Origin: an uncultured Bacilli bacterium
GTDB lineage: Bacteria; Bacillota_I; Bacilli_A; RF39; UBA660
Direction of reading: 5' to 3'
NCBI GenBank assembly: GCA_944372215.1
Contig: CALVYL010000003.1
Location: 1-47,277 of the forward strand
DNA length: 47,277 bases
Shown: positions 24,027 through 32,576 of the stretch, piece by piece
Position numbering within the stretch: position 1 is the first letter of the stretch
Layout: each line of letters opens with the position of its first letter
Translations under genes and position numbers: made by a program
Notes under the pieces: generated by a model
What the model was told of the DNA's origin: nothing
Databases searched by the model: none
What the model saw: only the letters and a program-made list of their open reading frames with translations

Positions 24027-25376
24027 CTACTTTCCTAAACAAAAATTACTAAATATATTATCAACTAATTCATCTTCATAGGAATCTCCAATTATTTCAC
24101 CAAGATATTCCCAAGCACTTTTTAAATCTATTTCAATTACATCAACTGGCATATTATTTTTTAAACTATTATAAGCATTTTTTAAAGCTTCATTTGCTTT
24201 ATTTACTAAGGTTATGCCTCGAACATTAGATAAATAAGACATATCTTTATTAACAATACTATCTAATTTTAACTTATCTTTAATAGCTATTAATAACTTA
24301 TCTAAACCATTATCAGTTACTGTATTTCCCAAAATTATTTCCCGGGAAATATTTCCCAAGTTTATTTTTTGTTCTAAATCGGATTTATTTACAAAAACAA
24401 TTAATTTTTCAGAATCTAAATTTCCCATAATTTCTAGCTCTTCAGGGCTAATTTCTTCATTATTATTTAATACATAAATAATAATATCAGCAGAATTTGC
24501 TACACTCTTACTTTTATCTACACCTATTTTTTCAACAATATCATCAGTTGCTCTTATCCCTGCCGTATCGATAAAATTTAGGGCCACACCATTTAGAGTA
24601 ATTGTACCTTCAACTATATCTCTAGTTGTACCAGGTATATTAGTAACTATTGCTTTTTCTTCATCTAACAAATGATTTAAAATACTACTCTTACCAACGT
24701 TTGGTTTACCAATTATAGCAACATTTACTCCATTTTTTATTATTCGACCATTTTTAGCACCACTAACTAAATTATCTAATTCTTTACTTATATCCACCAA
24801 GTATTTATCTAATAATTCATGAGTAACCTCAAGTTCATCAGTATATTCTGGATAGTCAATGTTTACCTCAATATTTGATAAAATCTTAACTATTTTTTCG
24901 CGGATATTTCTTATTTTATTAGTCAATATGCCATCAACATTATTTATAGCCAATGTTCTAGCAGCATCAGTTTTAGCAATAATTAAATCATTTACCGATT
25001 CCGCTTCTAAAAGGTTGATTCGTCCATTTAGAAATGCTCTTTTGGTAAATTCACCAGGTTCAGCAAGTCTAGCACCATTATTAATCAATAATTCCAGAAT
25101 TTTTTCTGTAGTACTAATTCCCCCATGACAATTTATTTCAACTGTATCTTCAGTTGTATATGTTTTAGGTTTTCGCATTAACATTACTAAACATTCATCA
25201 ATAACTTGATCATTATCAACAATATGACCATAATGAATGGTATGAGTTTCTTTATCACTAAGTTTGCCACTAAATATTTTTTCAACTATTTCTATTGCTT
25301 CTGGTCCAGTTATTCTAACAATAGATATAGCACCAATACCAATAGATGTTGAAATAGCACATATAGTATCATTCAT
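24027..25376 (-). CDS. mnmE: tRNA modification GTPase
   Basis: GEFTKRAFLNG, GKPNVGKSS, GTTRD, DTAG, FCLGK. Confidence 0.98.
   Translation of the reverse strand: MNDTICAISTSIGIGAISIVRITGPEAIEIVEKIFSGKLSDKETHTIHYGHIVDNDQVIDECLVMLMRKPKTYTTEDTVEINCHGGISTTEKILELLINNGARLAEPGEFTKRAFLNGRINLLEAESVNDLIIAKTDAARTLAINNVDGILTNKIRNIREKIVKILSNIEVNIDYPEYTDELEVTHELLDKYLVDISKELDNLVSGAKNGRIIKNGVNVAIIGKPNVGKSSILNHLLDEEKAIVTNIPGTTRDIVEGTITLNGVALNFIDTAGIRATDDIVEKIGVDKSKSVANSADIIIYVLNNNEEISPEELEIMGNLDSEKLIVFVNKSDLEQKINLGNISREIILGNTVTDNGLDKLLIAIKDKLKLDSIVNKDMSYLSNVRGITLVNKANEALKNAYNSLKNNMPVDVIEIDLKSAWEYLGEIIGDSYEDELVDNIFSNFCLGK
24336..24351. promoter_or_regulatory. Noc-binding site (NBS) inside mnmE
   Basis: TATTTCCCGGGAAATA palindrome containing the B. 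subtilis NBS consensus ATTTCCCGGGAAAT. Confidence 0.75.
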
Positions 25377-25415: not shown

Positions 25416-26930
25416 TTACGCAATTCTAAAAGGGTCAGATTCTGTACCAGTACCAGAGCTATATAAAACATCTGATGTCAGATAAAAGACTGGACGTACC
25501 GCAAGCATAATGCCGCTCACGCTGGCATTGACATTGACAACGCCAGTGCTGATCACATTGAACGCAAAGTAAATGTCACTTGAACTAGGGGAAATTGTCC
25601 ATTCAAAAAGTCCCATATGCATCCAATTATTACTAGTTATTGATGAACTATCGTATGAACTCATATTTGATGTCCAAGCACTCGGACTTGCTGCAAAACC
25701 GTAGTCACTTACATACATTAAGCCGATTTTTCCTCTCCATGTTGTTCCTGTACTTTCGGAATCTTGAAATACTGCTGGCGTTGCATTAATATTTATGTAT
25801 CCGTTGACATACCATGTTGCATTGTCAATCTTTCCTTGCCATGTTGAACTTATACTGTTCAAAAATGTTGAATTTAAATTTGTTGTTGTTAAACTACTGC
25901 TACTCCATGTATTTGTTCCACTTGGATTCCAGTAATATACTCCTATTGATGATATACTTTGATTTCCTTTATAATAGCTCTCATCCCATCCCGCACCAGA
26001 ATAAGTGTTATAATATGCTCCGCCTGTGCCTGTTTGGCTGGTTGTTGGATAATCCGCCATGATTAGTTTTACTTGGTTGCCAAAAACTCCGATTATTCGG
26101 TATAAGTTATCATTTGGACAAGTCTCTTCAACAGTACCGAAACAAACATAGTTGTTTGGATTAGCTCCACTATATCTGTAGGAATTATCTCCAGCTTCTT
26201 GATCTGCATTTGTATATGTACCTTCTCCATCATGATAATATAAACCATTGACTCCGTCTTCTGTATATACATTTTCAATTATATAACTAGCCAAAGTATA
26301 TCTTGGTTCTTTGGATAAAATTATCTCTCCTTCTAAAGTTTTACCGCCATTTTCATATTGATTTGTATCTAAATTGATAAACGATACTGTAAATGTCCAA
26401 TCTTGGACTGTATCAGTTGTACTTGAATTAGATGTTATTAAATATTCTTCTGCTATAGTATATAACCCACTTTTAGTTGTAATATCAAATCCTCCGAGTG
26501 ATTCAACATAAGTTAAACCATTAACAGATGTAACTGGACTACCGGTTGGATCTGTTATTGTAAGGATTATTTCTGGTTTTTGATCAGTAGTCGTATAAAT
26601 ATAGTTATTAGAGTTTATTTGAAAATAAACATAGTAATTGTAAGTTGCTATATCATTTGTGGAATTGGCTATTAAACTTGCAGTTCCTACCGCCGTATCA
26701 GTTAAATTATTTCCACCTTCTACTACATTAAATTGATTTGGATTTAAAACTATTTCTTTATCAACATTAAATTGTAAGTTATCCACAGTATCGCTTGACA
26801 AATTAACATTTTCACTTGCTCCAGTAGATAATTGAGCTATTATGTAAGCTAGTGTTGTGCCAACACATAGTAGTAATACCGCAATAATTATTAATACTAT
26901 TCTTTTTTTAGCATCTAAGTTTTGTTCCAT
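25416..26930 (-). CDS. Exported surface protein with a C-terminal CLec-like (DUF6273-like) domain; probable DGR target
   Basis: N-terminal signal ending GTTLAY; IGLMYVSDYGFA; WTISP...AFNV...G.V...AVRPVFYL C-terminus. Confidence 0.65.
   Translation of the reverse strand: MEQNLDAKKRIVLIIIAVLLLCVGTTLAYIIAQLSTGASENVNLSSDTVDNLQFNVDKEIVLNPNQFNVVEGGNNLTDTAVGTASLIANSTNDIATYNYYVYFQINSNNYIYTTTDQKPEIILTITDPTGSPVTSVNGLTYVESLGGFDITTKSGLYTIAEEYLITSNSSTTDTVQDWTFTVSFINLDTNQYENGGKTLEGEIILSKEPRYTLASYIIENVYTEDGVNGLYYHDGEGTYTNADQEAGDNSYRYSGANPNNYVCFGTVEETCPNDNLYRIIGVFGNQVKLIMADYPTTSQTGTGGAYYNTYSGAGWDESYYKGNQSISSIGVYYWNPSGTNTWSSSSLTTTNLNSTFLNSISSTWQGKIDNATWYVNGYININATPAVFQDSESTGTTWRGKIGLMYVSDYGFAASPSAWTSNMSSYDSSSITSNNWMHMGLFEWTISPSSSDIYFAFNVISTGVVNVNASVSGIMLAVRPVFYLTSDVLYSSGTGTESDPFRIA
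25488..25601 (-). other. Putative DGR variable region (VR)
   Basis: NNC/NNT codons between fixed GCG TTC AAT GTG, GGC, GTC, GTG and GCG GTA CGT CCA; 31/60 G+C at 25501-25560 in an AT-rich genome. Confidence 0.6.
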
Positions 26931-27045: not shown

Positions 27046-27255
27046 ATGACTGGTTTTAGATTAAAAGAAGATAAGTATGAAACAGAAAATAAAAGTATTA
27101 GATTTCCAGTTCCATTAATTGAAAGAATAGAAAAAAACATAGAAAGTAAAGCAACTAATTTTTCTAGTTTTGTTATTCAAGCATGTGAGTATGCTTTAGA
27201 TAATATGGAAGATATTGATAATGATAATAAATATAACAAAAGTGAAAAAATATAG
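27046..27255 (+). CDS. Small ribbon-helix-helix DNA-binding protein
   Basis: ENKSIRFPVPLIERIE...FSSFVIQACEYAL pattern; GGAGGT SD. Confidence 0.75.
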   Translation: MTGFRLKEDKYETENKSIRFPVPLIERIEKNIESKATNFSSFVIQACEYALDNMEDIDNDNKYNKSEKI

Positions 27256-27384: not shown

Positions 27385-28464
27385 ATGGAACCAATAAAAG
27401 TTAAAAAATTACCTATCGATTATACTTTGGATAAAGAATTAATAAAGTTAATTTCTGAAGCTAATTTAAAGTATGGAGAATATAAGTCAAATTTAAAAAA
27501 TAGTAAATTTGATTCGCGGTTTTTCTTAGATTCTATAATTCTTAGCGAAAGTTTAAAATCAACTCAAATTGAAGGTACACAAATTTCTCAAGATGATATG
27601 TATTATTTAAAATATATGCCAAAAACTGATGATAATTTAGAAATTCAAAATTTAAAAAAAGTAATAGAATATTCAAAAGAATATTTAAGTGAAAAGAATA
27701 AGATTAATATATCTTTTGTTAATAATATCCATAAAATACTTTTAAATAGTGTACGAGGAAATGAAAAAGAACCTGGAAAAATTAGGGACAATCAAAATTG
27801 GATAGGACCTAAGGGATGTAGTATCAAAGAAGCTATTTTTATTCCTCCAGTTCCTGAAGAGGTTCCAATTTTATTGGATAATTTATTTATATATATGAAT
27901 AATGCTTTTATTGATCCAATCTTTATAAACTTAGCAATTTCTCATTCGCAATTTGAAACAATTCATCCATATCGTGATGGCAATGGTCGATTAGGAAGAG
28001 CTTTAATCCCTATTCAATTAGCTTTACTTACTGAAGATGAACCTCTATTATTTCTATCAGAAATAATAGAATTATATAAACCAACATATTATAAACTTTT
28101 AAATGAAAGTAGAAAAGGTAATATTGCTGGTTTTATAAAATTCTTCTTACAATGTATAATTGATCAATGTAATAACTATATTGCTAAAATAAATAGGATT
28201 ACACAAATATATAACGAAGATATGAAAAAGATAGAAACATTAAATAGCAAAGCAATATATAAAATAATGCCTATAATAATACGGCAGATAGTTTTTACTA
28301 AAAAGGAAATTGAAAAAGAATCTGGAGTTTCCAGAAATACACTTACAAAATTATTAAAAAAATTAGTTGAATTAAATATCCTAGTTCCCGATAGTAATTA
28401 TACAAAATTAGGATATAGGTATAATGAAATATATAATGTTTTCGTTGGTAAAGGAATTTTTTAA
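27385..28464 (+). CDS. Fic-domain protein (class II) with a C-terminal wHTH
   Basis: HPYRDGNGRLGR catalytic motif; STQIEG inhibitory motif; KEIEKESGVSRNTLTKLLKKL HTH. Confidence 0.92.
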   Translation: MEPIKVKKLPIDYTLDKELIKLISEANLKYGEYKSNLKNSKFDSRFFLDSIILSESLKSTQIEGTQISQDDMYYLKYMPKTDDNLEIQNLKKVIEYSKEYLSEKNKINISFVNNIHKILLNSVRGNEKEPGKIRDNQNWIGPKGCSIKEAIFIPPVPEEVPILLDNLFIYMNNAFIDPIFINLAISHSQFETIHPYRDGNGRLGRALIPIQLALLTEDEPLLFLSEIIELYKPTYYKLLNESRKGNIAGFIKFFLQCIIDQCNNYIAKINRITQIYNEDMKKIETLNSKAIYKIMPIIIRQIVFTKKEIEKESGVSRNTLTKLLKKLVELNILVPDSNYTKLGYRYNEIYNVFVGKGIF

Positions 28465-28555: not shown

Positions 28556-29161
28556 TTATTCTGGTTTTATCACTATATGTCTGTTAGGTTCTTCCCCTTC
28601 ACTTTCAGTTTTAATACCTTTAAAATCTGTAAGTTTATTGTGAATAATTCTTCTTTCATAACTGGTCATATTATCAAGAGCTACAGGTATTTTAGTTTTA
28701 ACTACCTCTTTTGCAGTATTGATTGCTAGTCTTTCCAAATTTCTTTTGATCTTATCTTTATAATTAGATACATCTAAATTTATTTTATAATAAATTCCTG
28801 TTTCATTTTGAATTTTTTGTTTAGCTAAAGTTTCTAAAGCCTTTAAGGTTTGACCATTTTTACCTATTAATATAGGATTATTATTAGAATACATTTTAAT
28901 TGTTGTTCTATCATCTTTGGTATTTATTTCAAAAGTTACCTCTAATCCCATATTTTCAATGATTTCTTGCAAATAATTTTTTATTTCATTAATAATTGTT
29001 TCTTTTTTATAAACAGTTACCTCTTTTAAATTTCCTTGAAATAATTTTCCTTTTTTATCACAAGTGGTAAAAACAATTTCATCTTTTGTTAAATTATTTT
29101 CATTAAGAATATCTTCTAGTATTACATCTATTTCTTTACCCTCTTTAATTATTTTTTCCAT
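28556..29161 (-). CDS. jag: Jag/EloR/KhpB RNA-binding protein
   Basis: LIGKNGQTL (KH), ERRIIH (R3H), SEGEEPNR; follows yidC. Confidence 0.93.
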   Translation of the reverse strand: MEKIIKEGKEIDVILEDILNENNLTKDEIVFTTCDKKGKLFQGNLKEVTVYKKETIINEIKNYLQEIIENMGLEVTFEINTKDDRTTIKMYSNNNPILIGKNGQTLKALETLAKQKIQNETGIYYKINLDVSNYKDKIKRNLERLAINTAKEVVKTKIPVALDNMTSYERRIIHNKLTDFKGIKTESEGEEPNRHIVIKPE

Positions 29162-30203
29162 ATTTCATACCTTCTTTCTTAACTAATTTCTCTTTTATTT
29201 TTTCTCTATCTTTTTTCTTTTCTTCTTTATTTTTTTTATGTTTATTAGTTAAGGATCTATTATTTATCATATTAATAATAATATTTTGAATAGCAATAAA
29301 TGCATAAGTTACTATCCAGTAGAATGCTAAGGCTGTTGGTAAAGTAAGTGATGCATATACAACAATTACTAACATAACATATAACATTATTTTCATTTGT
29401 TTGCCAGCTTCTGGTGTTGGACTGGCAGATTGATTCATTGTTTGTCTAAATGAGAAGAATGTTGATACGGCGATTAATATTAATAAAATTATATATAAGT
29501 AATTTCCTTGTTGTAACCCTGTAATTGGAGTCATACCTAAGTCAAAGCCAAATAATGTTTCTGTATAAATTGCTGGTGTTCTATAAATCGCTTGGAGGAA
29601 GGCAAAGAACAAAGGTATTTGAATAAATGCCATTAAACATCCCATCATAGGACTTACTTTATATTTTTTATAAATAAGCATCATTTCTTGACTTTTAGCC
29701 ATTAAAGCATCATTATCTGTTCTACCACGATATTTTCTCTCTAATTTTTCTATTTCTGGTTGGGCTTTTTTCATATTTAGAGTTTGTTTAGAACTTTTAA
29801 TTGTAAATGGTAATAAAATAAGTCTAATAGCTAACCCTATTAATATTAATGATACCCCTAAATTACCAATGAGATTACCTAATTTTAATATTAAAAACGC
29901 TAGTGGTTTGACAAATAAGAATTCCCAAAGTCCACTACTTTCTGTTGCGGACATACTATAATCAGAACAACTTGGTAATTCTTCAAAATCATTAGTTAAT
30001 TGATCTTGATTTTCTTCATAAAATTTATATAAGTCACTATTTTCATCTGGTAAGCACAAAATATTTTTTTGAAGCATTTGACCTGTTGCTTCATATTCAA
30101 TAATATTTCCATCTTCATCAGTAATGTAATTTGATGTACCACAACCAGATGTTAATAATAGTAAACAAATTATTGTTAATATTTTAAATTTATTTTTTTT
30201 CAT
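29145..30203 (-). CDS. yidC: Membrane protein insertase YidC/SpoIIIJ (lipoprotein)
   Basis: Lipobox LTSGC, IRLILLP, GCLMAFIQIP, LAFYW; follows rnpA. Confidence 0.92.
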   Translation of the reverse strand: MKKNKFKILTIICLLLLTSGCGTSNYITDEDGNIIEYEATGQMLQKNILCLPDENSDLYKFYEENQDQLTNDFEELPSCSDYSMSATESSGLWEFLFVKPLAFLILKLGNLIGNLGVSLILIGLAIRLILLPFTIKSSKQTLNMKKAQPEIEKLERKYRGRTDNDALMAKSQEMMLIYKKYKVSPMMGCLMAFIQIPLFFAFLQAIYRTPAIYTETLFGFDLGMTPITGLQQGNYLYIILLILIAVSTFFSFRQTMNQSASPTPEAGKQMKIMLYVMLVIVVYASLTLPTALAFYWIVTYAFIAIQNIIINMINNRSLTNKHKKNKEEKKKDREKIKEKLVKKEGMKYGKNN

Positions 30204-30528
30204 TTTTATCCTTTCTCAAAATGTGTATTAAATCTTGTTCTAATTCTTGAAATGAGGCAAATTTTGATTCCCCTTTAATCATTATAATATAATTTTGATT
30301 ATTTTTAAATAGCAAACGATTATTATCAATAATATTTCTTAATCTTCTTTTTAGTTTATTCCGCACTACAGCATTGCCAGTTTTCTTACTAATAGCAATG
30401 CCAAAATTGGGTTTTGGATATTCTTTAGATTTGGAAAATATTATTAAATATCTACCTTTAAATTTTTGGCCTTTATTCATTATTTCATTAAAATCTTCAT
30501 GTTTTTTAACCATTTCATATCTTTTCAT
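30190..30528 (-). CDS. rnpA: Ribonuclease P protein component
   Basis: FGIAISKKTGNAVVRNKLKRRLR. Confidence 0.96.
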   Translation of the reverse strand: MKRYEMVKKHEDFNEIMNKGQKFKGRYLIIFSKSKEYPKPNFGIAISKKTGNAVVRNKLKRRLRNIIDNNRLLFKNNQNYIIMIKGESKFASFQELEQDLIHILRKDKNEKK

Positions 30529-31135: not shown

Positions 31136-31226
31136 TTAAAAATTAGTAAATTTACTCTTTTATTTTTTTGAAAAATGGGTTAAAATTGTTGTTAGGAGAT
31201 AAGTGTGTTATAAGTGGGGTGAGGTT

Positions 31227-32576
31227 TTGAAGACAAATGAACTTTTTACTCAATTTTTAAATGATATTCAAGAACAAGTTACACAGAATGCTTTTACAAT
31301 CTGGTTTTCAAAACTTGAACTTTTGTCAATTGTTAATAATGTTGTAACAATTAAAGTGCCCATGGAGATACATAAACAAATGTTAAGTGAAACTTATAAA
31401 GATATTATTGATGCGACATTCTTTTCCTTAACAGGAGTTAATTATACTTTTAAATATATTACGGAAGATGAGGTAGAAACATTTACTCAACCGGCGCTGG
31501 ATGAAGCGGTTGAGAGCAAAGAAATAGAGTGGAATACTAATTTAAATCCCAAATTTACCTTTGATAATTTTATAGTAGGAAACTCCAACCGTTTGGCGTT
31601 TGTAGCAGCACGAGCTGTTGCAGAAGCTCCGGGGACAATTCATAATCCCTTATTTATTTATGGTCGGAGTGGACTAGGGAAGACGCATTTAATGCAAGCC
31701 ATAGGTAATTATATTCATGAACATAGTGATTTAAAAGTTTTATATACTACTAGTAATGAATTTATGACGGAATTTACAGGAATTGCTTCCCAAAATAAGG
31801 GTAATAATTTAAATTATGCTAATGAATTTAAGAATAAATATCGTAATGTCGATGTCCTCATTATTGATGATATTCAATTTTTAGTGGGGGCAGAGCGAAC
31901 TCAACAAGAATTTTTCCACACCTTTAATGCTTTACATCAAGATAATAAACAAATAATAATTAGTAGTGATAAAAGTCCTGATGATCTAAAAAAGATTGAA
32001 GAACGGCTTAGAAGCAGATTTATGTGGGGACTACCTGTTGATATTTATCCACCAGATTTTAATTTAAGATGTGAAATAATAAAAGCTAAAGTAAAAAATA
32101 CGAGTATTGAAAATAAATTAACACCAGATGCAATTGATTATATTGCTAATTCTTGTGTTAATGATGTTAGGCATATTGAAGGAACAATTAATCGGTTGCT
32201 CGCTTATTCAGCAATGATGGTTCCTGACAAAATAACCCTCGATTTTGCTAATGAAGCATTAAAAGATTATGTTAATACAAATATATATATAAACAATTCT
32301 ATTGCTTCAATTCAAAATGTAGTTGCCGAATATTTCAATATATCAGTAGAAGATTTAAAAAGTAAGAAAAGAACTAATAGTGTTGTTAGACCAAGACATA
32401 TTGCAATGTATTTGTGTCGCGAAGAAACAGATGAGAATTTGCAAAAAATAGGTTTAGAATTTGGAGGAAGAGATCATTCAACAGTATCGACAGCAATTGA
32501 TAAGATTAAAGAAGAATTAGAAACCAATGATAATCTTAATAATATGTTGAAAGAAATTAAAACAAAGTTGCAATAA
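31227..32576 (+). CDS. dnaA: Chromosomal replication initiator DnaA
   Basis: NPLFIYGRSGLGKTHL, IDDIQF, RLRSRF, GGRDHSTV; TTG start after GGGGTGAGG. Confidence 0.98.
   Translation: MKTNELFTQFLNDIQEQVTQNAFTIWFSKLELLSIVNNVVTIKVPMEIHKQMLSETYKDIIDATFFSLTGVNYTFKYITEDEVETFTQPALDEAVESKEIEWNTNLNPKFTFDNFIVGNSNRLAFVAARAVAEAPGTIHNPLFIYGRSGLGKTHLMQAIGNYIHEHSDLKVLYTTSNEFMTEFTGIASQNKGNNLNYANEFKNKYRNVDVLIIDDIQFLVGAERTQQEFFHTFNALHQDNKQIIISSDKSPDDLKKIEERLRSRFMWGLPVDIYPPDFNLRCEIIKAKVKNTSIENKLTPDAIDYIANSCVNDVRHIEGTINRLLAYSAMMVPDKITLDFANEALKDYVNTNIYINNSIASIQNVVAEYFNISVEDLKSKKRTNSVVRPRHIAMYLCREETDENLQKIGLEFGGRDHSTVSTAIDKIKEELETNDNLNNMLKEIKTKLQ

Follow-up and report, generated by a model that had tools for sequence, protein, structure and literature searches.

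A probable variable region of a remote diversity-generating retroelement in a lectin-like surface protein of an uncultured gut Bacilli bacterium

In the diversity-generating retroelement (DGR) of Bordetella phage BPP-1, adenines of a template repeat (TR) are randomised into a variable region (VR) at the C-terminus of Mtd, a protein of the C-type-lectin-like (CLec) fold, through an AAC/AAT codon design. The chromosomal, non-phage DGR of Treponema denticola (TvpA) serves several non-adjacent surface proteins that carry their VRs at a CLec C-terminus, and its seven non-adjacent targets are the highest number given for remote targets by Wu et al. (PMC5758913). In the Legionella pneumophila DGR the surface-exposed target LdtA is diversified at its C-terminus in a DUF1566-type CLec VR. 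The cassette of that DGR couples a MutS-like (MSL) gene with avd, and MSL accessory genes always accompany avd (PMC5758913). For Thiohalocapsa sp. PB-PSB1 nine loci and 15 targets are described, with incomplete loci apparently diversified in trans (PMC10907252). The present work concerns a 47-kb stretch of DNA (hereafter the window) from a metagenome-assembled genome (MAG) of an uncultured Bacilli bacterium (GCA_944372215.1; 1.01 Mb, 68 contigs, 73.5% complete), in which an earlier note, made from the letters alone, had proposed an orphan DGR-type VR near oriC, within a CLec-fold surface protein that would be a remote target of a dispersed chromosomal system. Coordinates are window positions unless a contig of the assembly (C-numbers) or a congener genome (G-numbers) is named, and the annotated features are collected in Table 1.

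The analysis indicates, with a probability of roughly 0.75, that the segment is the VR of a remote DGR target that was overwritten in the past and is now probably frozen in this genome. A DGR origin of the segment is very likely, and a frozen state rather than continued service is modestly favoured. The kind of system is already known, namely remote CLec targets in Treponema, MSL with Avd in Legionella and many-target networks with incomplete loci in Thiohalocapsa; what is new is the host lineage (uncultured gut Bacilli, formerly 'Tenericutes') and the target density. Unlike the Treponema system, this genome has about 15 VR-type paralogues in about 1 Mb, a MutS-like gene in the cassette and no reverse transcriptase (RT) found. 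It differs from Legionella in its host, a reduced-genome Gram-positive-derived gut bacterium, in a target whose anchor would be an N-terminal helix and not a lipobox, and in a C-type-lectin-like domain (hereafter CTLD) of double size and of the immunoglobulin A (IgA) peptidase N-terminal-domain type. Thiohalocapsa has several intact RTs and intracellular NACHT/STAND-type targets, in contrast to the surface CTLD targets here, and BPP-1 differs in being phage-borne, with a single cis target and no MutS-like gene. A literature search whose scope excluded subscription papers and the supplementary tables of DGR surveys gave no description of DGRs in this lineage (RF39/Tenericutes/Mollicutes). Remote-target DGRs are known but few are documented, and discovery usually starts from the RT; a VR whose cassette has decayed or was not assembled is invisible to RT-based pipelines. 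The letters alone are enough to pick out such a VR in an AT-rich genome, where it stands out as an island of G/C-ending and NNC/NNT codons.

The segment lies in frame close to the 3' end of a minus-strand open reading frame (ORF). Its codon-by-codon reading in the earlier note was matched exactly: the reverse complement of 25601–25491 consists of the 37 codons TGG ACA ATT TCC CCT AGT TCA AGT GAC ATT TAC TTT GCG TTC AAT GTG ATC AGC ACT GGC GTT GTC AAT GTC AAT GCC AGC GTG AGC GGC ATT ATG CTT GCG GTA CGT CCA, and extension to 25488 adds one further codon, GTC. Scaffold codons (TCC, GCG TTC, GTG, GGC, GTC, GTG and GCG GTA CGT CCA) alternate with codons of the NNC/NNT form, whose proposed dominance also held, with C or T as the last base of 20 of the 21 codons classed as variable (background 0.516, P = 2e-5). 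Local G+C, put at about 50% in the note, was measured as 0.48 over the 37 codons and 0.45 in the 120-nt windows 25440–25559 and 25500–25619, compared with 0.22–0.30 in most adjoining windows; contig G+C across the assembly ranges from 0.24 to 0.31. Codons ending in G or C make up 19 of 37 in the segment versus 88 of the remaining 467 of the gene (binomial P = 9e-6), and the adenine share of bases is 0.22 in the segment versus 0.38 elsewhere in the gene. The compositional pattern of the segment is real and far from chance.

Complete DGR cassettes are present in congeners, for which 55 other genomes of the genus formed the comparison set. The order in these cassettes is a target gene with its VR, a TR about 300 nt downstream, a MutS-like gene, Avd, an RT of 355–370 aa and a small ORF. 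Mismatches between TR and VR fall at TR adenines in 12 of 13 cases in G010, 16 of 18 in G023 and 16 of 19 in G001. On a different contig of G010 lies a second VR to which the same TR corresponds, with 10 of 13 mismatches at adenines, and this DGR family therefore serves non-adjacent targets. Of the 55 genomes 48 have a DGR RT, in some of them interrupted or with stops, and many congeners have two to six RT matches in two identity bands of about 60–100% and about 45–50%; relatives of the genome thus possess both a TR and an RT, contrary to the absence that the earlier note had named as grounds for rejection. Of 36 same-genus genomes 29 encode the MutS-like protein, and none of 24 from outside the genus does. 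In G019 the RT scored 64.5 bits on RVT_1, and the full-length Avd aligned to positions 2–103 of the 104-position DGR Avd model with an E value of 2e-8, below the model cut-off.

The window segment lines up with the congener TRs along its full length. For a quantitative comparison 15 G+C-rich VRs of the assembly were set against six full-length congener TRs, using columns at which at least five of the six TRs agree. The VRs agreed with the TR consensus at a mean of 0.44 over the 26 adenine columns and 0.82 over the 40 others (Mann–Whitney P = 2e-7), and the window VR by itself matched at 11 of 26 adenine columns and 32 of 40 other columns (Fisher P = 0.003). The segment is accordingly of the DGR type first proposed, being homologous to the adenine-specific VR/TR pairs of complete congener cassettes and differing from their TR consensus mostly at TR adenines. 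Its end, ...CGTCCAG followed by TCTTTTATCT, resembles the boundary of the congener cis VRs; in G001 and G023 the TR/VR match stops at ...CGGCCAG, beyond which the VR reads TCTTTTA and the TR ACCTTTA. A 3' boundary of the initiation of mutagenic homing (IMH) type with a downstream hairpin or cruciform is a feature of the BPP-1, Legionella and Treponema DGRs.

A tblastn search of the assembly returned 30 copies of the target's C-terminal domain, some of them fragments or cut at contig ends. The W-T-I-S...V-R-P motif could be delimited in 26 of them (C16, C42_5409, C36 and C27, which lack it, were omitted), and the segment from W to RP spans 35–41 codons. G+C content at third codon positions (GC3) of this segment is bimodal: 14 copies lie at 0.42–0.67 (the window copy at 0.51), two at 0.32–0.36 and ten at 0.10–0.22, and the N-terminal remainder of the family genes has a GC3 of 0.10–0.22. 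The listing of paralogues with the same segment end that had been suggested as a check thus gave 14–16 copies with a G+C-rich, NNC/NNT-patterned segment, or about 15 paralogues over 13 contigs, in agreement with the dispersed system that had been claimed. Together the family genes occupy about 35 kb of the 1.01-Mb assembly (about 3.5%). In the G+C-rich copies the conserved residues are spelled with the genome-rare codons TCG, GCG, GTG, GGC, GTC and CGC, with NNC/NNT codons between them, and no fewer than three scaffold types and five length classes can be told apart among the VRs. The sister pair C1_367 and C40 differ at codon positions 1, 2 and 3 by 12, 14 and 2 bases in the VR versus 3, 1 and 7 in the 40 codons upstream, the reverse of ordinary divergence.

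Some of these features could also belong to a hypervariable loop with no DGR involved, in which positively selected point mutations and gene conversion between the 30 copies generate the diversity, with the raised G+C following from amino-acid content. The family is large, the variable segments of its copies differ by indels over the 35–41 codon range, ten paralogues have AT-rich versions of the segment, and the core replacement seen in other strains (below) could be gene conversion. Such an origin is nevertheless very improbable. It leaves unexplained why conserved residues are spelled with rare synonymous codons ending in G or C and why variable codons of the sister pair keep their third bases, and it accounts neither for the bona fide TR/VR pairs of the congeners nor for a non-coding, AAC-rich template in the assembly itself, lying beside Avd and MutS-like genes and fitting three VRs at 26 of 27 non-adenine bases.

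This template is located on contig C33, which holds the sole DGR parts of the assembly; there is no TR, Avd or RT in the 47-kb window, and the designation of the window gene as a remote, trans target is supported. When a profile of the 15 G+C-rich segments was run over the genome, a single non-coding match was obtained, C33:10999–10951, a TR remnant of about 45–50 nt that reads on the minus strand AAT GTC, four AAC codons, GTG, three AAC codons, AAT and GCG GTG CGC CCG. Accessory genes, the MutS-like gene and Avd, adjoin it, the Avd covering only residues 1–84 of 114 in tblastn with a congener Avd. The VRs C22_43, C29_2034 and C10_17975 mismatch this remnant at 8–9 of 18 adenines and at only one of 27 other bases. 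A tyrosine-recombinase gene is cut by the contig end 120 nt upstream of the remnant; the upstream flank and the last 12 codons of this gene match G019 at 90.6%. A TR just as short adjoins a three-recombinase element in G019, and it is within this element that C33 (10814–11119, locus L010) ends.

The search for a TR beside an RT that the earlier note had called for was therefore successful in part, in that it yielded the C33 remnant but neither a full-length cognate TR nor a DGR RT; within the 73.5%-complete assembly no TR was found that differs from the window VR solely at TR adenines. With the DGR RTs of G019 and G010 as queries, tblastn of the assembly returned nothing (best E 0.08), and the genus-wide search that was positive in 48 of the 55 other genomes likewise gave no hit here; the absence is from an incomplete MAG. 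As assembled, the sole cassette is dead: its TR lacks the 5' part, its Avd is cut short and an RT is missing. A PF00078 search of the assembly gave a single RT, a retron-type protein of 323 aa (C10, 1351–2322, plus strand) between pyrG and a ZIP-family transporter. As the only RT of the assembly, with a family fragment bearing a G+C-rich VR (C10_17975) about 10 kb away on the same contig, it might be supposed to supply reverse transcription for the orphan TR and VRs. It belongs, however, to the retron St85 family (NF038233, 221 bits, E 1.6e-65) and has LPQGTPTAAY where the congener DGR RTs have LPIGNMTSQF. To our knowledge no retron RT performs mutagenic homing. On the strength of its family assignment this RT was rejected as the driver of VR diversification, a role for which the chance is negligible.

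The three VRs that fit the C33 remnant are one or two codons longer than it, and the extra codons lie inside AAC-templated runs. AAC codons may have been lost from the TR once these VRs had been written, or synthesis of complementary DNA (cDNA) may slip on AAC repeats.

Strains were compared through assembled contigs, in which minor variants are invisible, and the comparison used near-identical long contig pieces and the joint between 25503 and 25589, other joints and differences at 80% likeness being mostly due to paralogues or other species. Contigs from two runs of two other studies (X4 and X5) have flanks that differ from the window at 1 in 320 nt and 7 in 549 nt, and one contig in each jumps from 25503 to 25589, leaving the variable core 25504–25588 unalignable and the replacing letters not visible; record lengths suggest that X5 carries about 82 nt where the window has 85. 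This shows replacement of the core between strains with conservation of its flanks, with neither adenine specificity nor within-population variation demonstrated. Window-identical contigs occur in two runs labelled chicken gut metagenome. A scan of metagenome contigs with a 24-mer from the 3' end of the gene found no match, and a scan with a 24-mer from the start of mnmE found three loci, all about 70% identical relatives from other species and none a strain variant. A protein homologue search for strain variants was likewise negative, the best non-self match being 59–62% identical overall and 65% over residues 385–504, and a DNA search of the 55 congeners with the VR gave no near-identical VR or TR (best non-self match 70% over 137 nt).

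Taken as a past event, the writing of the segment would have proceeded as follows. At some time in the history of the lineage an adenine-mutagenised cDNA would have overwritten a 37-codon C-terminal stretch of a membrane-anchored surface protein, the source being the TR of a cassette of the TR, MutS-like, Avd and RT type that is widespread in the genus. Scaffold codons would have retained the G+C-rich spelling of the TR, and AAC/AAT-templated codons would have kept their third base while positions 1 and 2 were randomised. About 15 targets of this kind, the window gene among them, would be spread across the chromosome. In this genome the system would no longer write the window VR, which would be the frozen product of past diversification; that last step is proposed because of the 5'-truncated TR, the truncated Avd, the lack of an RT, the non-adenine drift and the length mismatch with the remnant TR.

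Several observations weigh against this account of a written and then frozen VR. The frozen state rests on absence from a MAG that is 73.5% complete, and a TR cognate to the window VR was found neither in this assembly nor in the 55 congeners. The window VR mismatches 8 of the 40 non-adenine columns of the congener TR consensus, and its comparison with the C33 remnant shows mismatches at 8 of 16 adenines and 5 of 26 other bases with two codon-sized gaps; it was therefore written from a different or earlier version of the TR and then drifted slightly. Adenine columns coincide with codon positions 1 and 2, so selection for amino-acid diversity pushes the counts in the same direction, although selection does not account for the rare synonymous codons or for the constancy of third bases. 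A stable hairpin 3' of the window VR was looked for and not found (-4.8 kcal/mol, z 0.54). Contigs of runs X1 and X2, from one study whose material possibly includes the source sample, carry the window sequence unchanged across the VR. The exact protein occurs on five database contigs, all with an identical VR, a frameshifted copy has this VR as well, and no within-population variation of the VR was seen among the contigs.

The term orphan is literally true of the window VR. In place of a frozen VR, the segment could be a live target, diversified in trans by an intact cassette in the unassembled 26% or so of the genome, for example beside the recombinase trio at the C33 break. The 68-contig, incomplete assembly leaves room for such a cassette, as do the break of C33 within the recombinase gene and the multiple RT matches of many congeners in two identity bands, and both the replaced VR core in near-identical strains and a GC3 of the window VR that has not decayed to the level of the AT-rich paralogues would suit it. 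Against this, no RT fragment occurs on any of the 68 contigs, the existing cassette is contiguous from the TR remnant to comEA without an RT, all contigs with a readable VR have one and the same VR sequence, and synonymous drift is visible at its 3' boundary (GTA CGT CCA versus GTG CGC CCG in the remnant TR). A live target is on balance unlikely.

The frozen VR, which is still preferred, fits a pattern in which VRs may decay toward the genomic A+T bias once rewriting ends. A family member lies upstream of mnmE in 6 of 11 related loci examined; in the record titled Candidatus Onthocola stercorigallinarum (locus L067) its VR is G+C-rich (GC3 0.57), and three others are AT-rich at 0.17–0.28, a spread that would agree with such decay.

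A broader proposal is that the genus runs a chromosome-wide DGR network in which one or two MSL–Avd–RT cassettes rewrite at least 15 membrane-anchored, lectin-like surface proteins in trans. Three further parts belong to it. The VR length classes would arise as the TR gains or loses AAC codons or as the RT slips on AAC runs, an idea put forward because the C22, C29 and C10 VRs fit the remnant TR at all but one non-adenine base yet exceed it in length; the three-recombinase element would act as a template-switching or template-truncating module; and VR GC3 in an AT-rich genome would be a clock of how recently a VR was written. As a joint proposition this is doubtful. A small-genome gut lineage here devotes a large family of lectin-like surface proteins to DGR diversification, and its cassettes are gained, interrupted and lost while the written products remain. 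Such turnover bears on surface variation in the animal gut and on the miscounting of 'orphan' VRs in DGR surveys.

The target's C-terminal domain was modelled with AlphaFold2 over residues 205–504 (46 homologues in the input), giving a mean predicted local distance difference test (pLDDT) of 94.6 and a predicted template modelling score (pTM) of 0.93. A Foldseek search of 'pdb' gave one significant match, 9qa6 (E 5e-8), with all others at E > 0.7. The same structure, which is the IgA peptidase N-terminal domain of Thomasclavelia ramosa, was the best match in VIA-align (Z 15.3, root-mean-square deviation (rmsd) 3.0, 196 residues aligned, 21% identity). Below it the wide VIA-align search revealed a series of CLec folds: the C-terminal domain of Legionella Lcl (8q4e; Z 6.5, rmsd 4.4, 122 aligned), which was the second-best fold match, PvdO (Z 6.1), the DGR targets TvpA (2y3c; Z 6.0, rmsd 4.4, 154 aligned) and Mtd (1yu0; Z 4.9, rmsd 5.4, 153 aligned), EgtB/FGE-type enzymes, and about 30 canonical C-type lectin domains (Z 4–5). 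VIA-align Z scores below 8 are weak singly, and the assignment rests on the consistency of the match list. A CLec fold of the predicted domain, and with it the proposed placement of a VR at the C-terminus of such a fold, is supported by the model; the variable segment corresponds to model residues 240–276, which form the final β-hairpins. The authors of 9qa6 describe this domain as a C-type-lectin-like domain of enlarged form that resembles Lcl (PMC12237041). It differs from the target in being joined to a metallopeptidase, is not known to be diversified by a DGR and has no known function.

At the sequence level the target protein had no Pfam match at E ≤ 1, and in an NCBIfam scan the best match, MAG1140_fam at 0.21, was of no use. 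At least 7995 homologues were present in public protein collections at E ≤ 1e-10, none of them named and a few carrying PF19789. The N-terminal hydrophobic stretch is probably a signal anchor or transmembrane helix, and would place the remaining protein outside the cell.

Table 1. Features of the target gene and of the cassette remnant (window positions unless contig C33 is named)
Feature	Location	Strand	Description
Target gene	25416..26930	-	504-aa protein, large paralogous family
N-terminal hydrophobic stretch	26829..26903	-	Residues ~10-34, KRIVLIIIAVLLLCVGTTLAYIIAQ; N-termini of paralogues similar
Predicted CTLD	25419..26318	-	Residues 205-504, AlphaFold2 model
DGR-type variable region (VR), probable	25488..25601	-	W444 to P480 plus the V481 codon; codon pattern and alignment to congener TRs
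VR 3' boundary	25479..25502	-	GCGGTACGTCCAG then TCTTTTATCT; IMH-like position, same junction where congener cis VRs stop matching the TR
MutS-like gene	C33, after TR remnant		124-aa MutS-domain-I protein, PF01624 E 6.6e-5, 23.5 bits (cut-off 20.6)
Avd-like gene	C33, after MutS-like gene		102 aa, NF033474 E 0.005, below model cut-off
Rpn/PD-(D/E)XK gene, then comEA and comEC	C33, after Avd-like gene		Rpn/PD-(D/E)XK gene N-terminally truncated

Among the congeners, the DGR RT gene is split in G023 (C3 8733–11706) and G030 (C1 108110–111080), with residues 1–240 and 224–358 encoded about 1.8 kb apart. An ORF of 431 aa lies between the two parts in G023, and its N-terminus, recognised by eye, is presumably that of a group II intron RT-like protein; the RT gene of G023 would then be interrupted by an inserted intron. 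In G019 (C22, 8768–12601) the three tyrosine-recombinase genes lie between two inverted copies, about 210 bp long and 86% identical, of a short TR with its downstream spacer. The short TRs of the two copies are not alike in sequence, and one copy runs on into a family target gene, not into the MutS-like gene. The recombinase trio could be a mobile element that inserts into TRs, or a template-switching module.

Within the paralogous family two ORFs, C12 17631–19634 (783 aa) and C13 10210–11964 (735 aa), each encode two tandem lectin-like domains. In the C12 ORF the VR of the terminal domain copy is G+C-rich (GC3 0.42) and that of the internal copy AT-rich (0.17). The family member at C23 76–402 has an AT-rich variable segment and an in-frame TAA nine codons past V-R-P (FYLKS*VLYAGG), and is likely a pseudogene or truncated copy.

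The end of the target ORF adjoins mnmE (24027–25376), lying 40 nt upstream of it. Further along the window are genes that we take, from their translations, to be jag, yidC and rnpA (28556–30528, minus strand), followed by dnaA (31203–32576), dnaN, recF and gyrB on the plus strand; these lie within 2–5 kb of the target, which bears out its claimed closeness to oriC. A gene for a Fic/DOC-family protein (PF02661, E 7e-16, Fic_N domain; 27385–28464, plus strand), preceded by an ORF of 69 aa (27046–27255, plus strand), sits inserted between the target gene and jag in this origin-proximal position, and the two could be a toxin and its small partner.

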